A DNA stretch of 64,000 nucleotides from Phycisphaerae bacterium. GTDB taxonomy: Bacteria > Planctomycetota > Phycisphaerae > UBA1845. The position numbers and the translations under genes were made by a program. The stretch is taken from contig CAXXGO010000001.1 of assembly GCA_963666835.2 (NCBI GenBank), forward strand, positions 1,728,001 through 1,792,000, read 5' to 3'. Under the pieces are notes generated by a model, which was not told the DNA's origin, did not search any database, and worked only from the letters and a program-made list of their open reading frames with translations. Positions 18,777 through 31,853 of the stretch are shown here, in pieces. Each line of letters opens with the position of its first letter. Position 1 is the first letter of the stretch.

Positions 18777-20369
18777 CTATGCCAGGGCCGGCTCGGCGTT
18801 GATGTCGGTTTCCTCGTATTGCCCACGGATCTCATCGAATTGAGCCTGGCAGCGCAGGAAAGCCTCGACCAACGCGGGGTCAAAGTGCTTGCCGGAGTCG
18901 CCGGTGATGATCTCCATTGCCCGCTCATGGGTTAAGGCCGGTTTGTAGCGGCGCTGGCTGGTGATAGCGTCATACGCGTCGACCAGGGCGATTATCCGAG
19001 CGGCGAGAGGGATGTCGTGCCCGGCGATTTGCCGGGGATAGCCCGACCCATTGAACTTCTCGTGATGGCAATGGGCGATCTCGATGCACATCTGCAAGAG
19101 CGGGACAGGCCGTGCCGGGTCGAGCGCTTGCGAGAGCACCCGTTTGCCGATCTCCGTGTGGGTCTTCATGATGTTGAACTCCTCGTCCGTCAAGGCCCCG
19201 GGCTTGGTCAGGATTTCGTCGGGAATCCCGACTTTTCCGATGTCGTGCATCGGGGCGGCTTGGACGAGCAGGTCTACGTATTCGTCGGTGATGATCTCCG
19301 TATAGGGGCCGGCTTGGCGGAGGGCGTCAGCCAGGACGCGGGACATCCGTGTGACACGTTCGAGGTGTCTGGTGGTTTCTTCGTCACGGTATTCCGCCAA
19401 GTGGCCGACAGTCTTGAGCAGGACCTTAACGGACTGTTGGAGACGCTCGCGGTGCTCAATGCTGGCCAGCGCAATCGCACCGGCGTCGGCCACGGATCGA
19501 ATGCACTCGATCTCCTCATCGTTGAACGCCCCGTTATCCGTCTTGTTGGTGAGGTTAAGGACGCCGATGATTCCGTCGCGGGTTTCCAGGGCGGTGACCA
19601 ATGGAGTGCTGAGGAATGCTTCGCTGCTGTAGGTCGTGCTCTCGTCGGGGCCGTACGCGCGGGCTGACAGAGTCTTGCCGCTGCGGAATACCTGCCCGGC
19701 GATTCCCTCGACGGTTCTGACCCTGATCTGATCGACGACGGCCGGGTCGATACCTACGGCTCTCTCGCATACCAGGGTGTCACCGGTTACGTCGCGCAGG
19801 AGCAGCGAGATCCTCTGAGCGGCGGTCATTTCCTCAACGCAACGGACGATCAAGTCGAGGATGCGGTCTCGCGAGGTGGCGAGGTTGATCTCACGCATGA
19901 ACTCGTACAGCAGTTGGAGGCGTCGGGTCTTGGCATCGACTTCGGCCTCCAGTTGGGTATTGAGCTGGTCCAGGTTCTTTTGAGAGCGGGCCGTTCTGTG
20001 TACGGACTGAACGCGGGCCATCAGCTCGGCGATGTCGAAGGGCTTGGCGAGGTATTCTTGCGCGCCGGCCTCCAGCCCCAGCACCACATCCTGCGGCTTG
20101 GAACGGGCGGTCAGGATGATAATTGGAATCGCAGAGGTTCGGGGGTCGGCCTTCAATGTCCGTGTGGTGGCGATTCCGTCAATTCCGGGGAGCCCCAGGT
20201 CCATGATGATCAAATCAGGCGTGCGCTCGGTGGCGATGTCGATTGCCTCATAGCCGTCGGAGGCTTCGCTGGCGTCGTACCCGGCCGCCTTCAGATTGGC
20301 AACCAAGATAAGTCGTAGCTTGGCGTCGTCTTCGACCACCAGAACGCTATCGTGGCGTTCGTCGGCCAT
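18777..20369 (-). CDS. Response regulator with receiver, GAF and intact HD-GYP domains
   Basis: EDD/DLIIMD/KPF receiver, GAF, MHDIGK, HHEKFNGSGYP. Confidence 0.92.
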   Translation of the reverse strand: MADERHDSVLVVEDDAKLRLILVANLKAAGYDASEASDGYEAIDIATERTPDLIIMDLGLPGIDGIATTRTLKADPRTSAIPIIILTARSKPQDVVLGLEAGAQEYLAKPFDIAELMARVQSVHRTARSQKNLDQLNTQLEAEVDAKTRRLQLLYEFMREINLATSRDRILDLIVRCVEEMTAAQRISLLLRDVTGDTLVCERAVGIDPAVVDQIRVRTVEGIAGQVFRSGKTLSARAYGPDESTTYSSEAFLSTPLVTALETRDGIIGVLNLTNKTDNGAFNDEEIECIRSVADAGAIALASIEHRERLQQSVKVLLKTVGHLAEYRDEETTRHLERVTRMSRVLADALRQAGPYTEIITDEYVDLLVQAAPMHDIGKVGIPDEILTKPGALTDEEFNIMKTHTEIGKRVLSQALDPARPVPLLQMCIEIAHCHHEKFNGSGYPRQIAGHDIPLAARIIALVDAYDAITSQRRYKPALTHERAMEIITGDSGKHFDPALVEAFLRCQAQFDEIRGQYEETDINAEPALA

Positions 20370-20783
20370 GTATCCGTTCTCCGTGTGCGGGCCCGGCGAC
20401 ATCGCCGTGCGAGTTATCGCAACCAGCTTTCCATCGGCAAGTTCCGGTTGAGACCGCATTTACAGACTGATGTGCGCTTGGGTGATGAAAACGTCCGAGA
20501 ATCGCCCCTTTCGCACTCGCGTAAGCGGCGGTGCGGCGGCCGATAGTACCCAAAGAACGCCGTGGGCACCCCGTCGAAGGCGTCTCTTGGTACTACTGGG
20601 GTGAAGCGGCGCGGTGCCGGTCGCCTTCTGCCGCTTCTGCTCGGCTTGGCGGCTACGAGGTGCGTCAGCGGGGATTCACGGTATACTCGGCGACTGCCGG
20701 AGGGAGCCCGGTGGTCGTCTCGACGGTCCGGGCGGGCTCGCATTCGGCCGGTTCCATTGGACATTGAGCAGAGGAGTCCGAGA

Positions 20784-20984
20784 ATGCCGATTAAGATCTT
20801 TGCCGCTCCGGGCGACCATCGCAACGATTTCGAAGCCGTTGAGACGCAGACCAATACGTGGCTTGCTGAGACCAACCCGCGGGTCCTGAGTATTCACCCG
20901 TTGGTCAACCAGATGCCCAGCTCGCGTGATTCCAACCAGTTCATGATGACCATGGTTGTCCACTATGACAAGACTGACGCGTAG
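20784..20984 (+). CDS. Small hypothetical protein (66 aa)
   Basis: GAGGAG RBS before ATG at 20784 (MPIKIF...VVHY). Confidence 0.6.
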   Translation: MPIKIFAAPGDHRNDFEAVETQTNTWLAETNPRVLSIHPLVNQMPSSRDSNQFMMTMVVHYDKTDA

Positions 20985-22458
20985 TTGCCCGTGGGCCTGC
21001 GGTGTCGGCGCTATACTCCTGGGTTTGGGCTTTCTAACGCCGCGGACGATGGCCGGCGAAGGAGATCCGAGCGCGCCGGAGCCTATCCCGGCGGCCCTTC
21101 TCAGGGCGATGCCGTCGGCGGCTCTTTTTGCTGCGGTGTTTGCCGGGCCGGCGGAGCAGGGGGCCGATGGGCGGACTTCGGCGGATCTTCGGATTGTCGC
21201 TCTCCTGGCCGCACAGGTTCAAGAACTCGGGCTCCTTTCGGGGACGGATTCGACCACGCGAATCTGGGTCGATGTTCTTGCAGCTTACGCTACCGTGGCG
21301 GAGTCTCCCTTCGGAATTACGCTCCTTGATGTTCAGGCGCAACCGCGAATGGACGGCGGCCATCAACTGGCCGGTTTGCGAGCTGCGCTCATTGTCCACT
21401 GTCGGCGCGAAGGCACCGAGCTTGAACGCCGGATCCAACGAGCCCTGAGCACTTACACCAACGACGAGACCGGCGTACTAACGACGCGTCGAGAAGGCAC
21501 GGACACTGTCTACGAACTCAGAGACCGACGTCTGCCGGATTGGGCGCTTCTGTCTTGGGGCTGGGTTGGCGATTCGTACGTGCTGGCTATCGGCGAAGAC
21601 GTGGTTCCGAGGGTCGCTTCTGCGGATCGCGAGCCCTCCTCCGGCCTGGCTGACGATACGTGGTTTCGGCGGGCCTTTGAGGTCGCGGACGGGCCGGGCG
21701 CATCCGTGCTGTGTTTTGCGCGTTTAGACGCTTTGCGAAACGGCGTTGCTCCGTCGTTGGCTCAGAAGATCGGCCGCGTTGGGGCCGCCCTTCGTCTTGG
21801 CGACGTGGATCGTGGCCTGTGGGCTTTTCGGTATGAGGATCGTGCTCTGGAGGCCGTCGGGTTTCTGCGCCGTAGCGGTGTCGAAGAGCGGGTGATCCTG
21901 GCGGGGCGCGAGCTTCTTGCTGATGACAGAGAACGGGTCGTTCCGGACGAAGCCAAGTCGTTCGCGGTGTTCGACGGCAGTGTGCGGCTCTTGTATTACG
22001 GTCTTAGAGACGCCTATCTGGCATCGTGCAGCCCCGGGTGGGCGGAGCGGTGTCGGCAGTTTTGGCGGGGGATCGAGCAGCGGACGGGGGTTTCGGTCGA
22101 TCGCGATGTTTTGCGGCGCTTGGGCCATACGTTGGTGATCCATGACTACCCCGCGCACCCCCTCCGCGTTCCGGCGATGTGGACTTACATGGTCCACCTC
22201 GACGGAAGAGGCGGCGCCCTTCGCGAGAGTATCACTCGGGTGCTGGAAGGACTTCAGCCGGAGTGCGTGAAGGAGACCGGATTCCGGTTGATGCAGGCTC
22301 CGGATGGAATCTGGCATTTGCAGTTGGGGCTGCTCGGTCCGGCGGTGGGTCTGACGGATGACTGGCTCATCGTGAGCTTCTCGCCGGAGGCGGTTCGGCG
22401 AAACATGGCTCGGTTGATGCCGGTTTCGGGGCGCGAGAAGGCTTCGATGAGGCAGTGA
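20956..22458 (+). CDS. Hypothetical exported protein (DUF3352-like)
   Basis: 500-aa ORF with signal peptide. Confidence 0.6.
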   Translation: MSTMTRLTRSCPWACGVGAILLGLGFLTPRTMAGEGDPSAPEPIPAALLRAMPSAALFAAVFAGPAEQGADGRTSADLRIVALLAAQVQELGLLSGTDSTTRIWVDVLAAYATVAESPFGITLLDVQAQPRMDGGHQLAGLRAALIVHCRREGTELERRIQRALSTYTNDETGVLTTRREGTDTVYELRDRRLPDWALLSWGWVGDSYVLAIGEDVVPRVASADREPSSGLADDTWFRRAFEVADGPGASVLCFARLDALRNGVAPSLAQKIGRVGAALRLGDVDRGLWAFRYEDRALEAVGFLRRSGVEERVILAGRELLADDRERVVPDEAKSFAVFDGSVRLLYYGLRDAYLASCSPGWAERCRQFWRGIEQRTGVSVDRDVLRRLGHTLVIHDYPAHPLRVPAMWTYMVHLDGRGGALRESITRVLEGLQPECVKETGFRLMQAPDGIWHLQLGLLGPAVGLTDDWLIVSFSPEAVRRNMARLMPVSGREKASMRQ

Positions 22459-22541: not shown

Positions 22542-23774
22542 TTACGGATACCAGGCCTCGGCCATCGTACGGAACTTCAGGGAAGGTGGGGCGGGATCGA
22601 AGGACGTCCAATACAGAAACGACAGGTCCTCGTTGCGGAACGACTTGGCCAGGAGCCCGGATTCGTGCAATTGAGCGGGTCCCTCTATTCGGGGCAGACG
22701 TTGGTTTTTGGAGTCGAAGGCGACGACGACAATGGGGGCGAAGGGGAACTCGTGAACGTGCCGCACGACGACGGCGAAGCGTCCGTCCACCAGCCGGATT
22801 TTGGCGCCGATGGGAAACGGTTGGATGACCTTCGGGAAGACCTCCATCATAACCGGATCGTAGAATCGGCGGTGAGTGCCGATGGACATCTCCCACAGAG
22901 CCCGGACCGGTGACTTGCCCTCGCCCAGAACGCTGTCCCCCGTTGTGGCGTCGAAGGCGTCGGCGATTCGCACGATGCGCGGGAATACGTGCAGAGAAGC
23001 GCCGTCCAGGTGGTTGGGATAGCCGGTGCCGTCGTAGTTCTCATGGTGGTTCTTGATTACGATTCGTGCCAGTATCGGAAACTGCTCCGGAAGAGCTGCG
23101 GCACCCGTCGCGGGGTGCTCTCGGATCATCTCCTGTTCGGCACCGCTGAGCGATCGATCCAACCGAAGCAACGGCACCAGGGGTACCATGCCGACGTCGG
23201 CGAACATGGCTCCCAGACCCAGGGGCGTAAGGTCTTCGAGCTGCTTGGCATTAAGCCGGGCGACAGTTTGGCGCTTGCGTTCCTCAGCTACGTAGTCACG
23301 CAGAGCCGATCCCAGAAGCATACTGAGGTAGAAGACGTTCCCGGTCCGAACAGCCAGGAGATTGTCACTGTCAACGCAACGGGTCAGAAGCGCCGACGAT
23401 ACCGAGTTGTTCTTCAGAAAGCCGATTACCTCATCCACGGCGGCTCGGGCTTTGTGGAAATCAATCTCCCCTCCGCCCACCGCGGCCCGCCCTCCGTAGC
23501 GGTTCTGAACATCAGCCATGCACTTGGCTATCTTCGTCTGGACCCGGGTTCCGACTCTGCGATCCTGGGCGTCGTCCTGAAACTCGATGGCTTCGTCCAG
23601 GAACGGGTCGATTACGCGAACGGTGATGTTAGGGAACCTACGCCGTAGCGTCCGGATCTCGGGAGCGCGGAGGGGGATCCTGGCCGGGAGCTGTACGACC
23701 CCCTTTGAGATGATGGACTCCGCAAGCTGCATGCCGGGTTCCAGCTCGTCACAGGGAATCGCCAGCGGCATCAT
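22542..23774 (-). CDS. HD-GYP domain protein with degenerate HD motif
   Basis: HHENYDGTGYP and IADAFDA present; FADVG replaces LHDIG. Confidence 0.85.
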   Translation of the reverse strand: MMPLAIPCDELEPGMQLAESIISKGVVQLPARIPLRAPEIRTLRRRFPNITVRVIDPFLDEAIEFQDDAQDRRVGTRVQTKIAKCMADVQNRYGGRAAVGGGEIDFHKARAAVDEVIGFLKNNSVSSALLTRCVDSDNLLAVRTGNVFYLSMLLGSALRDYVAEERKRQTVARLNAKQLEDLTPLGLGAMFADVGMVPLVPLLRLDRSLSGAEQEMIREHPATGAAALPEQFPILARIVIKNHHENYDGTGYPNHLDGASLHVFPRIVRIADAFDATTGDSVLGEGKSPVRALWEMSIGTHRRFYDPVMMEVFPKVIQPFPIGAKIRLVDGRFAVVVRHVHEFPFAPIVVVAFDSKNQRLPRIEGPAQLHESGLLAKSFRNEDLSFLYWTSFDPAPPSLKFRTMAEAWYP

Positions 23775-24051
23775 TCATCCTCTTCGGATCAATAGGTTCC
23801 TTGGGCATCCGGCGACCGAACGCGACGAAGCACGCGGCAAGCGGCCGAGGTTCGGCGATCTAGACCGGTTCCGCCATCGGCCCGGCTCGGGATTCACCCC
23901 AAGCCGGAAACACCGTGTAGTGCTCTCAGATGCGCTGATCGCGCTTTCCTTCTGATCGGTCAGTCCTGATGGGCATCGTAGCCGGGTTGGGATGGTGCTC
24001 CCGCCCGGGCGACAGGGCCTCTTGTTGGCCGGGATTACCGGACTCGGGTGG

Positions 24052-25086
24052 TCAGCAGATTCGGGGTAGTTCCTCGCCGTAGGGACGCTGGATAACCCGC
24101 CGGCCGCCGGTGTGCGTGACCAATTCGGCAAGCGGCGGGGCGGCGTCGGTGATGCGGCCGACTATCGCAGCGTCTCGGCCTAGGGGGTGGCTTTGCCAGC
24201 AGCTCAGGGCTTGCTTCGCATCGCCGGCCGCGACAATAGCGAGGCACTTGCCCTCGTTCGCCACGGTCATCGGGTCAAGCCCGAAGACCTCCGCGGTGTG
24301 CCGGGCCGTTGGGGAGATGGGCAGCGCCGCCTCATCGAGCTCAACGGTCAAACCAGTGTCTTCGGCAATGTCGGCGACAACGCCGGCCAATCCGCCACGG
24401 GTAGGATCCCGCAGGAATTTGACGTCGGATCCGGTGTCGAGCAGGGTGCCGATCAGGTGGTTCAGGGGGGCGGCGTCGCTTTCGAGGCTGGTATCGAACG
24501 CGAGTCCCTCGCGGACCGACATGATCGCCAGGCCGTGGTCGGCGATCCGGCCGCTGATCATCACAACGTCTCCGGGAACCACCCGCCCGAGATCCAACCG
24601 TGCGTCTCTCCGAATCCGCCCGATCCCGGCTGTGGTGATAGTGAGCCCGTCGCCGCTACGCCGTTCGATGACCTTCGTATCGCCCGTTGCGATAACGACG
24701 TCGGCTTCCCGGGCGGCCTGCGCGACGGAGTCGATAATCCGATCGAGAGTGCTCAGGGGCAGTCCTTCCTCGATAGTCAAAGCCAGGCTCAGAGCGGTGG
24801 GGACCGCGCCCATTACGGCCAGGTCGTTCACCGTTCCGCATACCGCCAGCCGCCCGATGTCCCCGCCGGGGAACTCCAGGGGGAGGACGACAAAGGAATC
24901 CGTTGTAAACGCGAGGGGCAACTCTGATGCCGGAATAGTGGCACTATCGGCCAGGGGGTTCAGCAGCTTGTTGCCCAGACGCGGCAAGAAATGCTGTTGG
25001 ATGAGTTGCTTAGTCATCTCGCCCCCGCCCCCGTGCGCCATAGTCACCCGCGGAGCGTCGCTTTGTGTTGTGGAAGGTCCCGTCAT
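24052..25086 (-). CDS. hypE: Hydrogenase maturation protein HypE
   Basis: AHGGGG, TTDSFVV, GTVNDLA, RDPTRGG, ANEG, C-terminal PRIC. Confidence 0.97.
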   Translation of the reverse strand: MTGPSTTQSDAPRVTMAHGGGGEMTKQLIQQHFLPRLGNKLLNPLADSATIPASELPLAFTTDSFVVLPLEFPGGDIGRLAVCGTVNDLAVMGAVPTALSLALTIEEGLPLSTLDRIIDSVAQAAREADVVIATGDTKVIERRSGDGLTITTAGIGRIRRDARLDLGRVVPGDVVMISGRIADHGLAIMSVREGLAFDTSLESDAAPLNHLIGTLLDTGSDVKFLRDPTRGGLAGVVADIAEDTGLTVELDEAALPISPTARHTAEVFGLDPMTVANEGKCLAIVAAGDAKQALSCWQSHPLGRDAAIVGRITDAAPPLAELVTHTGGRRVIQRPYGEELPRIC

Positions 25087-25141
25087 CTGATCGCTCCTGC
25101 TCCGGTCACCCCAAGGACCGAGAACGAAGGGCTGCGCACCG

Positions 25142-26239
25142 TCATCCCGACTCTTTTTTCCGAGATACCGGTTCACGATCATACCTGAAGGCCGCCGCGC
25201 AGCTTCCCTCACTGCTTACCATGCACGGTCCGACCGGTTGGGTCGGGGTGCAGGCCGTTGCGAACAACCCGCACTGCTTCGGGGCCAGTTTTCCCTGAAT
25301 GACCTCTCCGCAGCGGCAACCTGGCGTCGGGTCGTCCGCGTCAAGGTCTACGTCGAACTGAACGCCGGCGTCGAGACCCCGGTATCGTTCCCGCAGGATC
25401 AGGCCACTGTCCGCTATTACTCCCATCGCCCGCCAGGCAACGGAGGCGGATTCGAACACTTCGTCAATTGTCCGGCGGGCCGCTTGGTTGCCGTTGTCGT
25501 TTACGACTTGCCCGTAGGTGTTCTCAATCCGGGCTTGGCCCGCGACTACCTGCTCGACAATAAGAAGAAGCGCGCCGAGCATCGACTGCGGCTCGAACCC
25601 CGCCACCACGCATGGTTTGGAGAAACGCTCAACGATGTCGCCGTAGGCTTGGGCTCCGATGATCGCGCTTACATGTCCGGGGCAAAGGAACCCGTCTATG
25701 GCGACGTCGTCTGCGGACAACAGAGCGGCCATTGCGGGGACCACCTGCTTGTGGGCGCACAGCATCAGGAAGTTCGACAGGTTCCGCCGCCGAGCCTCCA
25801 GGATTGCGGCGGCATGTCCGGCGGCTGTGGTTTCGAATCCGATTGCCAGGAACACGATCTTATGCTCGGGATTCGCAGCCGCGATCTCCAAGGCGTCGAG
25901 CGCGGAATACACAATCCGCACGTCGGCGCCGGCGGCCCGCTGTTGTTGCAGGCTGCCGTGCTTCCCCGGAACGCGGAGCATGTCACCATAGGTGCAGATG
26001 ATCGTGTTCTCGCGGAGTGCGATTTCGCATGCCGAATCGATGTAGCCTTGGGTGGATACGCACACCGGGCAGCCGGGGCCGCTGATAAGATGCACCAACT
26101 CCGGCAACATCGACTTGACGCCGCTTCGGTAGAGCGACACCGTGTGAGTCCCGCATACTTCCATTATGCGTATCGGGGCACGACCAGCGCACGCGGAGGC
26201 TATGCGTTGCGCGAGCATTCGGGGGGAGACCTCGTTCAT
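25142..26239 (-). CDS. hypD: Hydrogenase maturation protein HypD
   Basis: CGTHT, GPGCPVC, GFETT, PGHVS, GPCMVSSEGSC. Confidence 0.97.
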   Translation of the reverse strand: MNEVSPRMLAQRIASACAGRAPIRIMEVCGTHTVSLYRSGVKSMLPELVHLISGPGCPVCVSTQGYIDSACEIALRENTIICTYGDMLRVPGKHGSLQQQRAAGADVRIVYSALDALEIAAANPEHKIVFLAIGFETTAAGHAAAILEARRRNLSNFLMLCAHKQVVPAMAALLSADDVAIDGFLCPGHVSAIIGAQAYGDIVERFSKPCVVAGFEPQSMLGALLLIVEQVVAGQARIENTYGQVVNDNGNQAARRTIDEVFESASVAWRAMGVIADSGLILRERYRGLDAGVQFDVDLDADDPTPGCRCGEVIQGKLAPKQCGLFATACTPTQPVGPCMVSSEGSCAAAFRYDREPVSRKKESG

Positions 26240-26244
26240 ACTGT

Positions 26245-26559
26245 TCAACCCTCCGATTGGTCCTGGGATTGGCCGTCCTTGCCGCCCGAGCGCTGGGGCT
26301 GCTGTTCCAGATCCTCGTCCGTGGCGGTGTTGCACATAGACAGGTACTCCCAGGTCTCCAAGGCGTCCTTTTCATCGATGAGCTGGATGGCGAAGCCGGC
26401 GTGGACCAGCACCCAGTCACCCGGACGTGCTTCCGGAGTGAGGACCAGACTGGCGTTGACCCGGCTGCCCTGGAAATCAATGGTGCCAATGCGCGAGATA
26501 CCATCCGCGGCCGTCGGCGGTGAGGCCGAGATGATCTTGCCGGGTACCGCTATGCACAT
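26245..26559 (-). CDS. hypC: Hydrogenase chaperone HypC
   Basis: MCIAVPG, GDWVLVHAGFA. Confidence 0.97.
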   Translation of the reverse strand: MCIAVPGKIISASPPTAADGISRIGTIDFQGSRVNASLVLTPEARPGDWVLVHAGFAIQLIDEKDALETWEYLSMCNTATDEDLEQQPQRSGGKDGQSQDQSEG

Positions 26560-27695
26560 GATGTTGGGCTCCCCACTCGAGCTGCAGCTACCGCAGCCTG
26601 ACCAAGCGACAGGCCGTCGTCGCCGGGCGACAACTTGTTGTGGACCAGTATTCGACGCATACCCTGTTTTAGCAGAAGTTCGCTGACGCGTCGCTTCAGG
26701 ATCTGATTGAAGAAACAGCCGCCGCTAAGGGCGATCGTGTCCAACGATTCTCGTTCTGCGGCCTGAGTCGCTGCTTCGCAGAACATCCGGGCTACCGTTT
26801 CGTGAAATCGGCCGGCGATCATCTCGCGGGGCACCAAGCGGCAGACGTCCTCGCTGATAGCCGCGATCAGGGCGTCCAAGATGATCTCGCCGTCCGATCC
26901 CTCGCCGGCGATCCGGAAGGGATACGGCTCCATTTCCGTCGTTGTGGCGGTTCGTTCCAATTGGATCGCGGCCTGGCCTTCGGTTTCGTTGCGGTCGCAG
27001 CAGCCGATCAAGAATGCGACGGCGTCGAACAAACGTCCGAGACTGGAAGATGTCGGGCAGTTGAAGCCGCTTCGCAACATCGCCTCGACGGTCGCCAACT
27101 GCCCGCGGTCAACGCGGTCGAAGAGCCCCGCGATACGTGGGGGTACGTCATTCCCGAAGCTCTGTTGAACCAGGCTCAGTGCCGGCCGCCACGTGTCCCG
27201 AGCGGCCGCATCACCTCCGGGGAGTCTGAAGTACTGCAGATGGGCGTGCCGGGTAAACGCCGTTGAGGTCGCGGCAAGCACCTCGCCGCCCCACACAGCG
27301 CCGTCCGTACCGTACCCGGTGCCGTCACAGCAGATGCCGATTACCGGATCGGCCACCCCGTTCTCCATCATGCACGCGACGGTGTGGGCGTGGTGGTGTT
27401 GTACTCCGATCCGCGACTTCCCGTACCGGTGTGCGGCTTGGGTGGCCAGACTCGCGGGGTGCAAGTCATGGGCGACAGTAAAGGTCTCGTCGGCGAGTCC
27501 TCTGCGGATTCGATCCAGCCGGTTCCGAAAGCTGCGGTAGGCGGCCGCGTCGGTTAATGGCCCCGTGCCCGGGCTGACCGTAGCGTTCCCACCCTGCAGC
27601 AGGCAGATTGAGCCCTTCAGTTCGGCGCCGACGGCCACGATCGGTACCGCGCTGCTGATCGGCAGCGGAAGCAGGATGTCAGGATTGTGTTCCAA
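26550..27695 (-). CDS. hypF: Truncated HypF (C-terminal Kae1-like domain only)
   Basis: DLHP, QHHHAH, DGTGYGTDGAVWGGE, SSLGRLFD, LSGGCFFN, DDGLSLGQ; no acylphosphatase, Zn-finger or YrdC domains. Confidence 0.9.
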   Translation of the reverse strand: MEHNPDILLPLPISSAVPIVAVGAELKGSICLLQGGNATVSPGTGPLTDAAAYRSFRNRLDRIRRGLADETFTVAHDLHPASLATQAAHRYGKSRIGVQHHHAHTVACMMENGVADPVIGICCDGTGYGTDGAVWGGEVLAATSTAFTRHAHLQYFRLPGGDAAARDTWRPALSLVQQSFGNDVPPRIAGLFDRVDRGQLATVEAMLRSGFNCPTSSSLGRLFDAVAFLIGCCDRNETEGQAAIQLERTATTTEMEPYPFRIAGEGSDGEIILDALIAAISEDVCRLVPREMIAGRFHETVARMFCEAATQAAERESLDTIALSGGCFFNQILKRRVSELLLKQGMRRILVHNKLSPGDDGLSLGQAAVAAARVGSPTSCA

Positions 27696-27736
27696 CGGGA
27701 TCTCCGCAGGCGCTCTACCGCTGCTTAACTCGGCAC

Positions 27737-28141
27737 CTAGATGCCCTCGGGTGAGCGGTCCGAGCCGGTACTGAGCAGCCCGGCCAACTCCGCCAACTGG
27801 AACGGCTTTTCGATGCAGCGGATCTCGTCTGCCAGTGTGCTAGCCAAGTCCAACCCTGTCACTGTCCGGACGACTCGGGCCTGAGCGTTACGTTCACGGG
27901 CGCGTCTCTCCAGCGCTGTGATGGAGTCGATAGGCAACTGGTCTGAGGTGACTACCGCGTCGATGGCGTGATCGTCCAGAATGCGGTCGGCAGCCTCCAC
28001 CGATTCAACCGGGAACACGTCGTACCATTTACTCAGATACGTAGCCAGGGACCACCTCAGCAGAGCCTCCGGCTCCACAATGAGCAGGTATCCCACGCGT
28101 CCGTGGGGCAGGTGTCTATCGCCAGGGTGTTCCTCTGCCAC
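27737..28141 (-). CDS. Single-domain atypical response-regulator receiver
   Basis: LLIVEPE, DAVVTSD, IEKPF; GTG start at 28141 with AAGGAG RBS. Confidence 0.75.
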   Translation of the reverse strand: MAEEHPGDRHLPHGRVGYLLIVEPEALLRWSLATYLSKWYDVFPVESVEAADRILDDHAIDAVVTSDQLPIDSITALERRARERNAQARVVRTVTGLDLASTLADEIRCIEKPFQLAELAGLLSTGSDRSPEGI

Positions 28142-28169
28142 GATGTGGCTCCTTCCGTTCGCTTGCCCT

Positions 28170-28186
28170 TGCACACGCCGTGCCAA
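28170..28186 (-). promoter_or_regulatory. Sigma54 (-24/-12) promoter for the receiver-hypFCDE operon
   Basis: Minus strand TTGGCACGGCGTGTGCA; GG-N10-GC spacing; close to consensus YTGGCACG-N4-TTGCW; ~30 nt before the start codon. Confidence 0.75.
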
Positions 28187-28456
28187 GCCTACCCAGATGG
28201 GGCGAGTGCGGATCTGATCAGTCCGCCGGATCCGCGGGTGAGGCTCGCGGCGGCGGCTGAAAATGGGATGCCGGCAACAGCCGCGATGCTAGGAATGACT
28301 CTCCCGCTTCGGCCACGAACTCCAGTGGAGAAGGTCTATTTGGTGCATGAGTGTCTTGCCCTTGTGGATTCGACGAAGGGAGCCCGCGGATCGAAGCAGT
28401 CCGCCGGACACGCGAAGCGCGGTATCGTGCGACGCCACGTTGAATATAATACCCCG

Positions 28457-29665
28457 ATGGACCGGGATCTGTTTGATAAGTTCAAGTTGCAGTTGGATTT
28501 TGGCCCGCAGGATGTCGCCAACATGGTCGATGTGGCTGACACGTTTAGGCCGGTTGTTGGCGATGTTGTGGAGCGGTTTGTCCAAAGCATCCTCGGCGGC
28601 CCGGAGTCGCCGACCTTGCTGTCCGGGGGGGAGCCTCAGGTCGCGCGCCTACGGGAGCTGCTCAGATCCTGGCTGGAGCGTCTGTTCGATGAGACCATCG
28701 ACCTTGGGCGGTGTGAGCGTTTGCGGGCCCTAGGTGGCGCCCACGTTCGGGCGGGCGTGCCTCAGCATCTGCTCATCGCCGGGGTGGAGATGGTCTGGGG
28801 GGAGTTCGAGAGAACTGCCCGGGCGGCGGTATCGCTCCCGACGGATCGGGCACTCAGGTCCTTCCACAAGCTGTTGATGCTGGATCTGACCGTGATCCTG
28901 GCGGGCTACGAGGAACAGTACGCTGAGAAGGTCAGGAAGTCGGAACGGAGTGCGGTCGAGGAGAAGTTGACGCGCGCGGAGCATCTGGCGGAGATAGGGC
29001 AGTTGGCTGCTTCTTTGGCGCACGAGATCAAGAACCCGTTGGCGGGGATCAGCGGGGCGATCCAGATCATCCGCGATGCCATGTCACTGGATGATCCACA
29101 CCAGCCGATCATCACGGAGATTCTGTCGCAGATCAATCGGCTCGATGATACGGTCAAGGACCTGCTGCAGTACGCCCGTCCGACTCCGCCGCGTCTTAGC
29201 GCTTTCACCATGGATCAGGTTGTAGATCGGGTAATGAAGGTGCTACGGACGGAGCCGGCATTGCGGCGGGTGCGAGTTGAGTGTGGGCGAGTTCCCCCGG
29301 ATGTGTCGGTCTATGCCGATGACGCTCAGATTGAACAACTTATCATCAATCTAGTGCTAAACGCGGCTCATGCCTCTGAGGGTGAAGGGGGCATCCAATT
29401 GGCCGTCAGTGAAGAAGACGAAAGCGTGACTCTCGTGGTCAAGGATCACGGCAAGGGAATGTCGGAAGAAGTCCGCGAGCAGGCCTTCGAGCCCTTCTTC
29501 ACGACGAAAGCCCGGGGGACCGGTTTAGGGCTGTCCATTTGCAAGCGGATTGCCGAAGCGCATGGGGGCAGGATCGGAATGGCCAGCGAGCTTGGGCGCG
29601 GAACCGCAGTGACCGTTGTGCTGCCGCGCCGCGCACCGCATACGTTGCCTGAGGATAAGAGATGA
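28457..29665 (+). CDS. Globin-coupled sensor histidine kinase
   Basis: Sensor-globin N-terminus (WLERLF...GGAHVRAGV...KLLMLDL), His[32 protein letters not shown]. Confidence 0.9.
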
Positions 29666-31024
29666 CTGTTCGAGTTCTCATAGTCGAAGATGAAAAGCTG
29701 ATTCAATGGTCTCTGCGACAGAAGTTCGAGGCTCGGGGGTTTCAGGTGACCGGCGTCGAGGACGGCGAGAGCGGGCTCGCGGAGCTTGACCGCAACACCT
29801 TCGACTTAATTATGCTCGACTACAAGCTGCCGGACATCACCGGTTTGGATGTCCTCCGCAAGCTCCGGGCGATGGACGGCGACGTGGTCGTAATCATGAT
29901 GACGGCGTACTCGAGCATCGAAAGCGCGGTCGATGCCATCAAGCTGGGGGCATACGACTACGTCACCAAGCCGTTCGACATGGACGATTTGCTTCGCACG
30001 GCCGACAAGGCTCTGGAGACCACCAAGCTCAGACGCGAGGTTAGGGAGCTGCGGCGGCATATTCACCACGAGTACGGAATCGACCGGATAATCGGGCGGC
30101 ACCCGTGCATGCTGGAGATGTTCGACGTGATCGACCGGGTCGCCAGGAGCGGGGCATCGACGGTGTTTTTGCGGGGGGATTCGGGTACGGGTAAGGATCT
30201 GGTTGCTCGGGTAATTCACTACAACTCCGATCGGGCTCCGCGCCCCTTCATGAACATCACCTGTACGGCGCTGTCCGAGACCTTGCTCGAGAGCGAGTTG
30301 TTCGGACACGAGAAGGGGGGCGTTCACCGATGCGAAAACGGCGAAGAAGGGCCTTTTTGAGTTGGCCACCGGGGGCACGATCTTCCTCGACGAGGTCGGG
30401 GATATGCCGTTGGGATTGCAGGCCAAGCTTCTTCGCTTCTTGGAAGAGAGGACGTTCCGCAGGGTCGGGGGTACGACGGAGATTTCCGTCGATGTCCGGG
30501 TCATTGCGGCAACCAACCGCGATATAGAAGAGGCTATCGATCAGGGGAATTTCCGCGGTGATCTGATGTACCGGTTGAACGTGATCCCGATCTACCTGCC
30601 CCCGCTTTGTGAGCGGGGTGATGATACCAAGCTCCTTGCCCAGTATTTCGTTGCCCAGTTCGCCGGCGAGTTTCGCAAGCCCATGACGGAAATCGATGAG
30701 GCGGCGTACGAGAAGCTGCTGGGGTATTCCTGGCCTGGGAACGTGCGGGAGCTGCGTAATGTCATGGAGAGGGCGGTGTTGCTCTCTCGCGGAACGGTTT
30801 TGGGAGCGGATGACGTCGTGCTCGGTCGTGCCGATCAGACGCCGGGCAGCGCCGAGACCGGGTTTGTGCTGCCGACGCGGGGGCTGGACCTGCGCGAGTT
30901 GGAGAGCAACCTGATGCGTCAGGCGTTAGCCCGTGCGAAGAACAACCAGACGCAGGCGGCAAAGCTCCTGCGCCTCAGCCGCGACTCCTTCCGCTACCGC
31001 CTGGAGAAGCTGGGTCTGCTGTGA
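29662..31024 (+). pseudogene. Sigma54-dependent response regulator (NtrC family) split by a +1 frameshift in a G6 run
   Basis: Receiver, [17 protein letters not shown]; removing one G at 30315-30320 restores GAFTDA and fuses to GGTIFLDEVG, WPGNVREL and the Fis HTH. Confidence 0.85.
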
Positions 31025-31393: not shown

Positions 31394-31761
31394 GATCCTT
31401 ACGCGACATGCATTTCTTTTGTGGCAGGTATCGTACCTCGACCTGCCCTACAAAAGGTTACACCGATGAGGCACACGCCTACTATGGTTTTGCACTGCTT
31501 ATGAGCAAGGGCGCACCCGGAAATCCGGGTGTGACGGCGCACCAGATCCTCGCGCGACATGCGTTTTTGCGGCAGGTCTCGTACCTCGACCTGCCCTACA
31601 GAAGGTGACACCGATGAGGCACACGCCTACTATGGTTTTGCACTGCTTATGAGCAAGGGCGCACCCGGAAATCCGGGTGTGACGGCGCACCAGATCCTCG
31701 CGCGACATGCGTTTTTGCGGCAGGTCTCGTACCTCGACCTGCCCTACAGAAGGTGACACCG
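31394..31761. repeat. 148-bp tandem duplication (2 identical copies plus a degenerate partial copy), each with a REP
   Basis: CACCG recurs at 31461, 31609 and 31757 with identical intervening sequence; each unit has GGCAGGTCTCGTACCTCGACCTGCCCTAC and the hairpin CACCCGG-AAAT-CCGGGTG. Confidence 0.92.
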
Positions 31762-31853
31762 GTTACGCATACGCCCGCTGCGCGTTTATGCGAACGCCAT
31801 GAATAATCCGGCCTGACTCTGCAAACAGCCCGTTGGGCTCAGGGCTCTTGCGC

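Follow-up and report, generated by a model that had tools for sequence, protein, structure and literature searches.

In Myxococcus xanthus the globin kinase NmpU needs heme at His96 and phosphorylates the hybrid kinase NmpS, not NmpR (PMC11841059 and PMC6211767), and under hypoxia NmpR activates CBS, USP, cbb3, hemN and hemerythrin genes through the site GCGCA-N5-TGCGC (PMC11841059). AfGcHK, from Anaeromyxobacter sp. Fw109-5, is reported to be active when its heme carries O2 or CO and inactive when unliganded (PMC13287260). The HoxJ/HoxA system of C. necator uses sigma54 (PMC10073562), hyp genes of Proteobacteria are known to be under sigma54 control (PMC12316311), and DosR of Mycobacterium smegmatis switches on a group 3b hydrogenase under hypoxia (bioRxiv 2023.09.11.557286). 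Here we describe a locus in a 64-kb stretch of a Phycisphaerae bacterium (contig CAXXGO010000001.1; hereafter the window), in which a globin-coupled histidine kinase and an NtrC-type sigma54 activator stand divergent from an operon that runs receiver-hypF'-hypC-hypD-hypE. Our preferred reading, drawn from sequence comparison and given a probability of about 0.6, is that the sole hypF'CDE set of this genome serves its hydrogenases and that a globin kinase and sigma54 activator found throughout the order switch on hyp and fermentation genes at low O2.

A conserved kinase-activator pair linked to hyp genes

The gene order receiver-hypF'-hypC-hypD-hypE, then an HD-GYP gene, was correctly read in the initial annotation, as Pfam and NCBIfam confirm, and the co-translation it proposed for kinase and activator is borne out by a stop/start overlap, ATGA, at 29662-29665. 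HypC, HypD and HypE all exceed the cut-offs of their family hidden Markov models (HMMs) and carry the family motifs, including CGTH, GPGCPVC, GFETT and PGHVS in HypD and a C-terminal PRIC in HypE (Table 1). The kinase joins a sensor globin with a proximal His to HisKA and HATPase domains, as AfGcHK/NmpU kinases do, and a profile of its globin family, built from seven sequences, found AfGcHK (PDB 5OHE) as its best match in a structural library (E=2.9e-43). The parts of a sigma54 enhancer-binding circuit are likewise present: a receiver-AAA+-helix-turn-helix (HTH) activator with a GAFT loop, an encoded RpoN and a -24/-12 promoter.

The pair is conserved well beyond this genome. Of the 201 genomes of the order, 145 have a globin of the AfGcHK/NmpU type, nearly always as a single gene, and the activator directly follows the kinase in 45 of 46 fetched loci, the remaining locus being a contig end. 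Adjacency to the kinase holds in 52/59 loci for activators of at least 60% identity, versus 0/21 below 60%. Because nine of the 46 kinase loci had been selected for a nearby hypF, linkage to hypF was counted separately: of the 93 genomes in which both positions were listed, in assemblies that are fragmented, 18 have the kinase and hypF no more than 15 kb apart, against about 0.6 expected by chance. The proposed tie of a gas sensor and sigma54 activator to hyp genes thus stands, and the exact layout of the window recurs in three other loci (L048, L068 and L133). A divergent receiver accompanies the kinase in 23/46 loci. CBS proteins also recur near the kinase (16 loci), as do malic enzyme (10), hemerythrin (9), cytidylate-kinase-like proteins (7) and pyruvate:ferredoxin oxidoreductase (6). 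We conclude that the kinase-activator circuit is real and conserved across the order.

The window contains a single exact -24/-12 match, TGGCAC-N6-TGCA ahead of the hyp operon (28170-28185), where 0.10 would be expected by chance and 10 of 100 shuffled versions contain as many. Scored with a matrix from which it had been left out, the site comes 37th among the roughly 12 million positions of the genome. Among the 30 fetched short-hypF loci (those with coordinates listed, the class being defined by one match with E between 1e-50 and 1e-84), 22 have such a site with a score of at least 9, compared with 8/29 control stretches. Scans for sigma70 promoters and terminators gave chance-level results. 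In relatives, a palindromic enhancer, TGCG-N8-CGCA, lies ~100-150 bp upstream of the -24/-12 sites. It was found de novo upstream of hypF' and, independently, in a search to which the shuffled control applies, upstream of the kinase (33/40 loci; score 521 versus 307-343 in five shuffled sets). The kinase-derived matrix reaches a score of at least 10 in 13/30 hypF' upstream regions and 0/29 coding controls. Close relatives carry the sites in tandem at about -125/-146, with no site in 4 of the 15 shown. From this position we infer that the activator binds TGCG-N8-CGCA.

A strict enhancer-plus-promoter pattern gave 37 hits in 55 genomes versus 11 for the reversed pattern, some of these hits coming from loci used to train the motif. 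Nineteen of the 30 hits that were fetched precede redox, fermentation, CBS, hemerythrin, hypA or circuit genes; the other 11 precede unrelated or unnamed genes. The genes behind hits encode cytidylate-kinase-like proteins, 2-oxoacid oxidoreductase, glutamate dehydrogenase (three), an HdrC-like Fe-S protein and multiheme cytochromes. Hits in two genomes also stand before a membrane protein of ~210 amino acids with no Pfam match (L262:734-1354 and L266:697-1329), a candidate regulon member.

The first gene of the hyp operon, annotated initially as a receiver, is indeed a relative of receivers, with Ser in place of the phospho-accepting Asp. The protein has no Pfam match; its best match among the receivers of the genome is that of the activator (hhalign 96.5%). 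We therefore describe it as a pseudo-receiver, having the receiver fold and no phospho-accepting Asp. Across the family this position is Ser, Ala or Thr in 22/23 members and Asp in one, and an acidic residue follows one position later in 22/23, to which phosphorylation may have shifted. Helix 1 and the KPF loop, which make up the docking face, are conserved. A model of the kinase-core dimer with the pseudo-receiver scored 0.71 (best control 0.00; the mark used is reached by 116/157 solved pairs and 2/215 mismatched pairs), placing the pseudo-receiver on the kinase helix bundle through helix-1 and KPF residues, with 92% of contacts the same between runs and a pLDDT (predicted local distance difference test) of at least 83. 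Because kinase-receiver complexes have already been solved, this model speaks to likeness and a retained surface, not to binding; docking of the pseudo-receiver on the kinase is a prediction.

Probable hydrogenase clients, the one-domain HypF and flanking genes

The hyp module had been called stand-alone. This is true of the window, which has no match to a hydrogenase, hypA, hypB or endopeptidase, and untrue of the genome (92% complete), which encodes three [NiFe]-hydrogenase large subunits, hypA and hypB elsewhere. All three large subunits have intact L1/L2 motifs. By our own group assignment, one hydrogenase is group 2c-like and lies between signalling genes, one is group 1-like with a twin-arginine small subunit, and one is a four-subunit, group 3b-like enzyme. 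A likely endopeptidase gene follows each, although of these only the group 1 peptidase was recognized by an HMM at the threshold applied. Contig C6 carries hypA and hypB; hypC, hypD, hypE and hypF have one match each in the genome, with no second hyp set.

The order as a whole gives the same picture. In the 201 genomes, hypF was found in 155, a large subunit in 157 and both in 153, and all 51 short-hypF genomes have a large subunit. The order hypF'-C-D(-E) holds in 30/30 short-hypF loci, and the operon continues into group 3-type hydrogenase genes in 18/30, hypA in 14/30 and one or the other in 26/30; contig ends interrupt two of the remaining four. No other recurrent candidate client was found among the neighbours of hypF loci. 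The most exciting idea of the initial annotation, that the module makes Fe(CN)2CO or performs nitrile chemistry for some non-hydrogenase client, does not hold up. The truncated hypF and the distance of the operon from the hydrogenases in this genome do speak for it; however, we consider it very improbable and largely refuted, because the sole hyp set of the genome coexists with three hydrogenases and because hypF'CDE in relatives usually runs into hydrogenase or hypAB genes. The hyp genes are ordinary in purpose, and hypF'CDE likely serves the three [NiFe]-hydrogenases encoded elsewhere.

Control of Fe(CN)2CO synthesis separately from nickel insertion, also suggested initially, is not supported by relatives, in which hypAB sits in the hypF operon in 14 of the 30 short-hypF loci. 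In this genome hypAB lies behind a malic enzyme gene with a strong -24/-12 site. Three pieces carry such sites, namely receiver-hypF'CDE (rank 37), a regulator-kinase-3b hydrogenase cluster (rank 2) and malic enzyme-hypA-hypB (rank 18), whereas the group 1, group 2c, HD-GYP and kinase genes have none. Since each piece has its own strong site, we take them for one regulon broken into three operons; from sequence, an operon that is whole in relatives reads as lying in three pieces here.

Several of these loci have features worth recording. The malic enzyme gene that heads hypA-hypB (G000:C6:783993-786562, L017) is divergent from a hemerythrin gene, and both gene types are found next to the globin-coupled kinase in relatives. 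The 3b hydrogenase genes follow those for a receiver and a membrane histidine kinase (G000:C3:150398-152318, L016); this pair recurs in 18/40 hypF loci and is a possible second regulatory layer. The group 2c-like hydrogenase and its endopeptidase are flanked by a HAMP-PAS protein on one side and a hybrid histidine kinase on the other (G000:C6:430421-436912, L014), likely a separate H2-sensing unit, and repeated overlapping open reading frames close by (G000:C6:436700-438900) suggest an array of longer period. A protein of ~280 amino acids with an N-terminus that looks rhodanese-like by eye recurs near hypF in seven loci (L056 and six more).

HypF' consists of the Kae1-like carbamoyltransferase domain alone, with its metal/ATP motifs retained, and thus conforms to the single-domain HypF1 type; the acylphosphatase, Zn-finger and YrdC-like domains that precede the Kae1-like domain in canonical HypF are missing. 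It matches positions 384-740 of 741 in TIGR00143, under the cut-off. No N-terminal half of a split hypF was found elsewhere in the genome, and zf-HYPF has no match anywhere in it. The genome does encode one YrdC-family protein and one NodU/CmcH-type carbamoyltransferase, neither linked to hyp. The latter, at and just beyond the right end of the window (G000:C1:1791092-1793128, L259) and the sole PF16861 match in the genome, is a conceivable source of carbamoyl adenylate for HypF'. Many relatives of HypF' have the same length, and in a quick tree (64 rows from 81 loci, after dropping matches that were shorter than 300 amino acids, contained stops or were duplicated) the short forms branch from within the full-length HypF proteins of this order, with four changes between short and full forms, at least two of them forced by well-supported branches. 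This suggests that truncation happened repeatedly. HypF1 of C. necator likewise has one of the three canonical HypF domains, is thought to require carbamoyl adenylate from outside, and seems inactive anaerobically, working only with O2, according to PMC9100943. HypF' resembles it as a single-domain form and differs in being the only HypF, in a genome with no detected heme-copper oxidase.

The initial annotation placed the HD-GYP gene correctly, downstream of hyp on the same strand with its start 278 bp past hypE. Its membership in the hyp unit is ruled out by relatives, since an HD-GYP gene adjoins hyp or the kinase in 0/40 hypF loci and 0/46 kinase loci. The HD motif of this protein looks degenerate, because it reads FADVGM in place of the MHDIGK of the other HD-GYP protein in the window (18777-20459). 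Convergent with this gene, 20956-22458 (+) encodes a 500-amino-acid protein whose N-terminus resembles a signal sequence and which matches nothing in Pfam or NCBIfam. On the other side, downstream of the activator, 31417-31775 is a 148-bp tandem repeat of 2.4 copies.

Table 1 Features of the kinase-hyp locus, in window coordinates
Feature	Position	Strand	Remarks
HD-GYP-like gene	22542..23774	-	outside conserved unit
hypE	24052..25212	-	maximal open reading frame, likely start near 25086; TIGR02124 393.8 bits, cut-off 251.6
hypD	25142..26239	-	Fe(CN)2CO scaffold with HypC; TIGR00075 435.4, cut-off 192.8
hypC	26245..26559	-	TIGR00074 67.8, cut-off 48; Cys at N-terminus
hypF'	26550..27695	-	381 amino acids; PF17788 and PF22521 only
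Single-domain pseudo-receiver	27737..28141	-	related to receiver of activator; heads hyp operon
Sigma54 -24/-12 promoter	28170..28186	-	heads receiver-hypF'-hypC-hypD-hypE
Best enhancer match, non-significant	28270..28285		score 3.5; relatives typically 12-20
Globin-coupled histidine kinase, AfGcHK/NmpU type	28457..29665	+	Protoglobin, HisKA and HATPase; likely start ATG 28457
NtrC-type sigma54 activator	29662..31024	+	receiver, AAA+, Fis-type HTH; frameshifted in assembly

The proposed oxygen link, the sign of the switch and competing explanations

Comparison of the globins across the order points to O2. The proximal His is present in 98/99 homologues, the exception (L300, in G178) having Tyr at that position, and the distal Tyr at B10 in 85/99. 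B10 Tyr helps hold O2. The window kinase keeps the proximal His96 and has Val42 rather than Tyr at B10; these positions align with His99 and Tyr45 of AfGcHK. The distal Tyr is found in 72/75 genomes with a gene of the heme-copper oxidase family (PF00115, NO reductases included) versus 13/24 without, in a tally that covers 99 of the 145 globin genomes, includes all 24 oxidase-negative ones, some of them incomplete, and ignores kinship. The substitutes in oxidase-negative genomes are Val, Phe, His, Leu, Ile, Ser, Ala and Cys. Furthermore, an enhancer precedes the kinase in 25/37 oxidase-positive and 3/18 oxidase-negative held-out loci. PF00115 has no match in the genome of the window, which is 92% complete; cytochrome bd is present. 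Because both the B10 Tyr and the enhancer track the heme-copper oxidase, these comparisons support O2 as the signal in respiring relatives, and they make it likely that the switch in this genome has been retuned or is decaying, with a weakened O2 input. Among 30 genomes there were no relatives close enough for footprinting, the best globin identity being 39%.

In the mechanism that we propose, heme bound at His96 would read O2, and the kinase would directly set the phosphorylation of the adjacent activator, which would bind the tandem palindromes and open sigma54 promoters. Its targets would be hypF'CDE, the group 3b hydrogenase, hypAB, malic enzyme, 2-oxoacid oxidoreductases, glutamate dehydrogenase, hemerythrin, CBS proteins and the locus of the circuit itself. 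The pseudo-receiver, a product of the activated promoter, would compete for the kinase and so provide feedback. For the sign, we suppose, at somewhat under even odds within this model, that the kinase is more active with unliganded heme, the opposite of AfGcHK, a choice made because no NmpS-type inverter was found.

Several observations weigh against this low-O2 switch. The polarity measured for AfGcHK is, by analogy, the wrong sign for a direct one. The tallies that favour it ignore kinship, and the regulon scan partly returned its own training loci. Twenty-nine genomes have a globin without a hydrogenase and 41 a hydrogenase without a globin; together with the other recurrent neighbours of the kinase, the 29 lead us to regard hyp as one target among several. 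In the genome of the window itself, the C-terminal half of the activator has 10 matches, that is, several other sigma54 activators exist. The enhancer is undetectable at the promoters of this genome (scores of 3.5 at hyp, 3.8 at malic enzyme and 6-9 at 3b), the strict enhancer-plus-promoter pattern has no hit in it, and a genome-wide scan for the combination gave no coherent regulon. Finally, the NtrC-type activator of the initial annotation stands as to its domains, yet in the assembly a +1 frameshift within the G run 30315-30320 splits the gene and cuts through the GAFT loop. Near-identical populations (runs X2 and X3 from one sample and X4 from another) have one base fewer in this run, and run X1, an exact match to the window and its possible source, shows no gap there; the frameshift is possibly an assembly error or a strain-level change.

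These points could mean that the circuit is a relic in this genome, with hyp driven by another sigma54 activator or expressed weakly and free of control, and the adjacency simply inherited. The Val at B10, the missing clear enhancer, the assembly frameshift and the undetected heme-copper oxidase, in an incomplete genome that does have cytochrome bd, would fit. On the other hand, the activator frame is open in the near-identical populations, its HTH and GAFT loop agree with those of relatives and all three -24/-12 sites are strong; we hold this explanation to be possible but doubtful, and it is compatible with our model for the order as a whole.

The remaining alternatives concern the sign. If no inverter is shared across the order, then a reversed kinase, a HoxA-like activator or a regulon that is on with O2 or CO is needed. 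HoxA is active when unphosphorylated and is inactivated by HoxJ (PMC10073562), and the same logic here, a variant of the sign step inside our model, would let an O2-on kinase shut the activator off by phosphorylation while the unphosphorylated form drives low-O2 genes, preserving the AfGcHK polarity without an inverter. The top NCBIfam matches of the activator are AtoC, NtrC, PrsR-type, NtrX, LuxO and ZraR; an intact relative falls under the cut-off of every NCBIfam equivalog listed. Regulators of these kinds are mostly activated by phosphorylation, and we rate the HoxA-like logic as unlikely. The polarity of AfGcHK (PMC13287260) would also be kept by a regulon that trace O2 or CO turns on, one that prepares for O2 buffering and a hydrogen metabolism able to tolerate O2 instead of for anoxic fermentation. 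Hemerythrin and cytochromes among the targets suit this idea, as does the reported dependence of the single-domain HypF1 of C. necator on O2 (PMC9100943); however, the related NmpR regulon is described as hypoxia-induced (PMC11841059), and ferredoxin-dependent 2-oxoacid oxidoreductases are among the predicted targets, as is an HdrC-like Fe-S protein. We give it equally poor odds. Enzymes and Fe-S proteins of these two kinds are usually O2-sensitive. Lastly, an NmpS-like hybrid kinase encoded elsewhere could invert the signal, making this an NmpRSTU system with scattered genes. NmpU does not phosphorylate NmpR directly and nmpSTU homologues are reported in a Planctomyces (PMC6211767), and receiver-kinase hybrids do occur in this genome. 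Against a hidden inverter, in 45/46 loci the kinase gene overlaps or directly adjoins that of the activator, no hybrid kinase recurs beside the pair in the 46 loci, and four hybrids of this genome that were used as queries match 8, 8, 8 and 9 of 26 globin-positive genomes, with 0/6 in family f2. Because each matches only 8-9 of the 26, these four queries found no shared inverter, and we think this arrangement quite unlikely.

Returning to the low-O2 switch, its boldest form would be a master O2 switch of the order, with a reversed-sign globin kinase, a decoy receiver and a new enhancer, in which a repeatedly evolved one-domain HypF, lacking the domains held to make carbamoyl adenylate, matures hydrogenases even in lineages without heme-copper oxidases; this full version is tentative and on balance doubtful.

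Relation to known systems

The predicted circuit would assign the AfGcHK-type O2 sensor a definite set of target genes and a DNA site, in bacteria that are widespread and mostly uncultured, and it offers a prediction of how they shift between respiration and H2-linked fermentation. Two questions become testable: how an O2-activated kinase family could drive low-O2 genes without an NmpS inverter, and by which route a one-domain HypF receives its carbamoyl donor. The B10 substitutions that track loss of the heme-copper oxidase form a natural variant set for heme-sensor tuning. We found no description of such a circuit in Phycisphaerae in the literature covered, most subscription journals lying outside that coverage.

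Among hydrogenase regulators, HoxJ/HoxA of C. necator and HupT/HupR share with this locus a kinase and an NtrC-type activator for hydrogenase genes. The input of HoxJ/HoxA is H2, read through a regulatory hydrogenase, whereas the input domain here is a globin. DosS/T-DosR of Mycobacterium smegmatis also pairs a heme-based O2-sensing kinase with a group 3b hydrogenase target. Its sensor is a GAF-heme domain and its regulator is not of the sigma54 class; it is a functional counterpart, not a homologue. The initial annotation held that the sigma54 regulation described for hydrogenases uses a regulatory hydrogenase and no globin; a globin kinase coupled to a sigma54 activator is in fact known from NmpRSTU, but not for hydrogenase genes. 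AfGcHK differs from the window kinase in having an NmpT homologue as its partner (PMC6211767) and Tyr45 where the window kinase has Val.

NmpRSTU is the closest known system. Shared with it are a protoglobin-type kinase with His96, an NtrC-like sigma54 output, tandem enhancer sites, and a predicted regulon that includes CBS-domain and hemerythrin genes and autoregulation. In contrast to NmpRSTU, the kinase here abuts its activator and a receiver without Asp is present; neither an NmpS hybrid kinase nor an NmpT dual receiver was among the recurrent neighbours in the 46 kinase loci, where the NmpS and NmpT sequences themselves were not used as queries. The enhancers appear to differ too, TGCG-N8-CGCA against GCGCA-N5-TGCGC, with the half-site TGCG common to both; the former is what the de novo searches for 16-base palindromes returned, and the NmpR motif itself was not searched. 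The predicted targets here are hydrogenase and fermentation genes, whereas those of NmpRSTU are cbb3 oxidase, hemN and pilR. As judged from these genomes, the circuit is a variant on NmpRSTU that has a predicted enhancer, a putative decoy receiver and a tentative sign.

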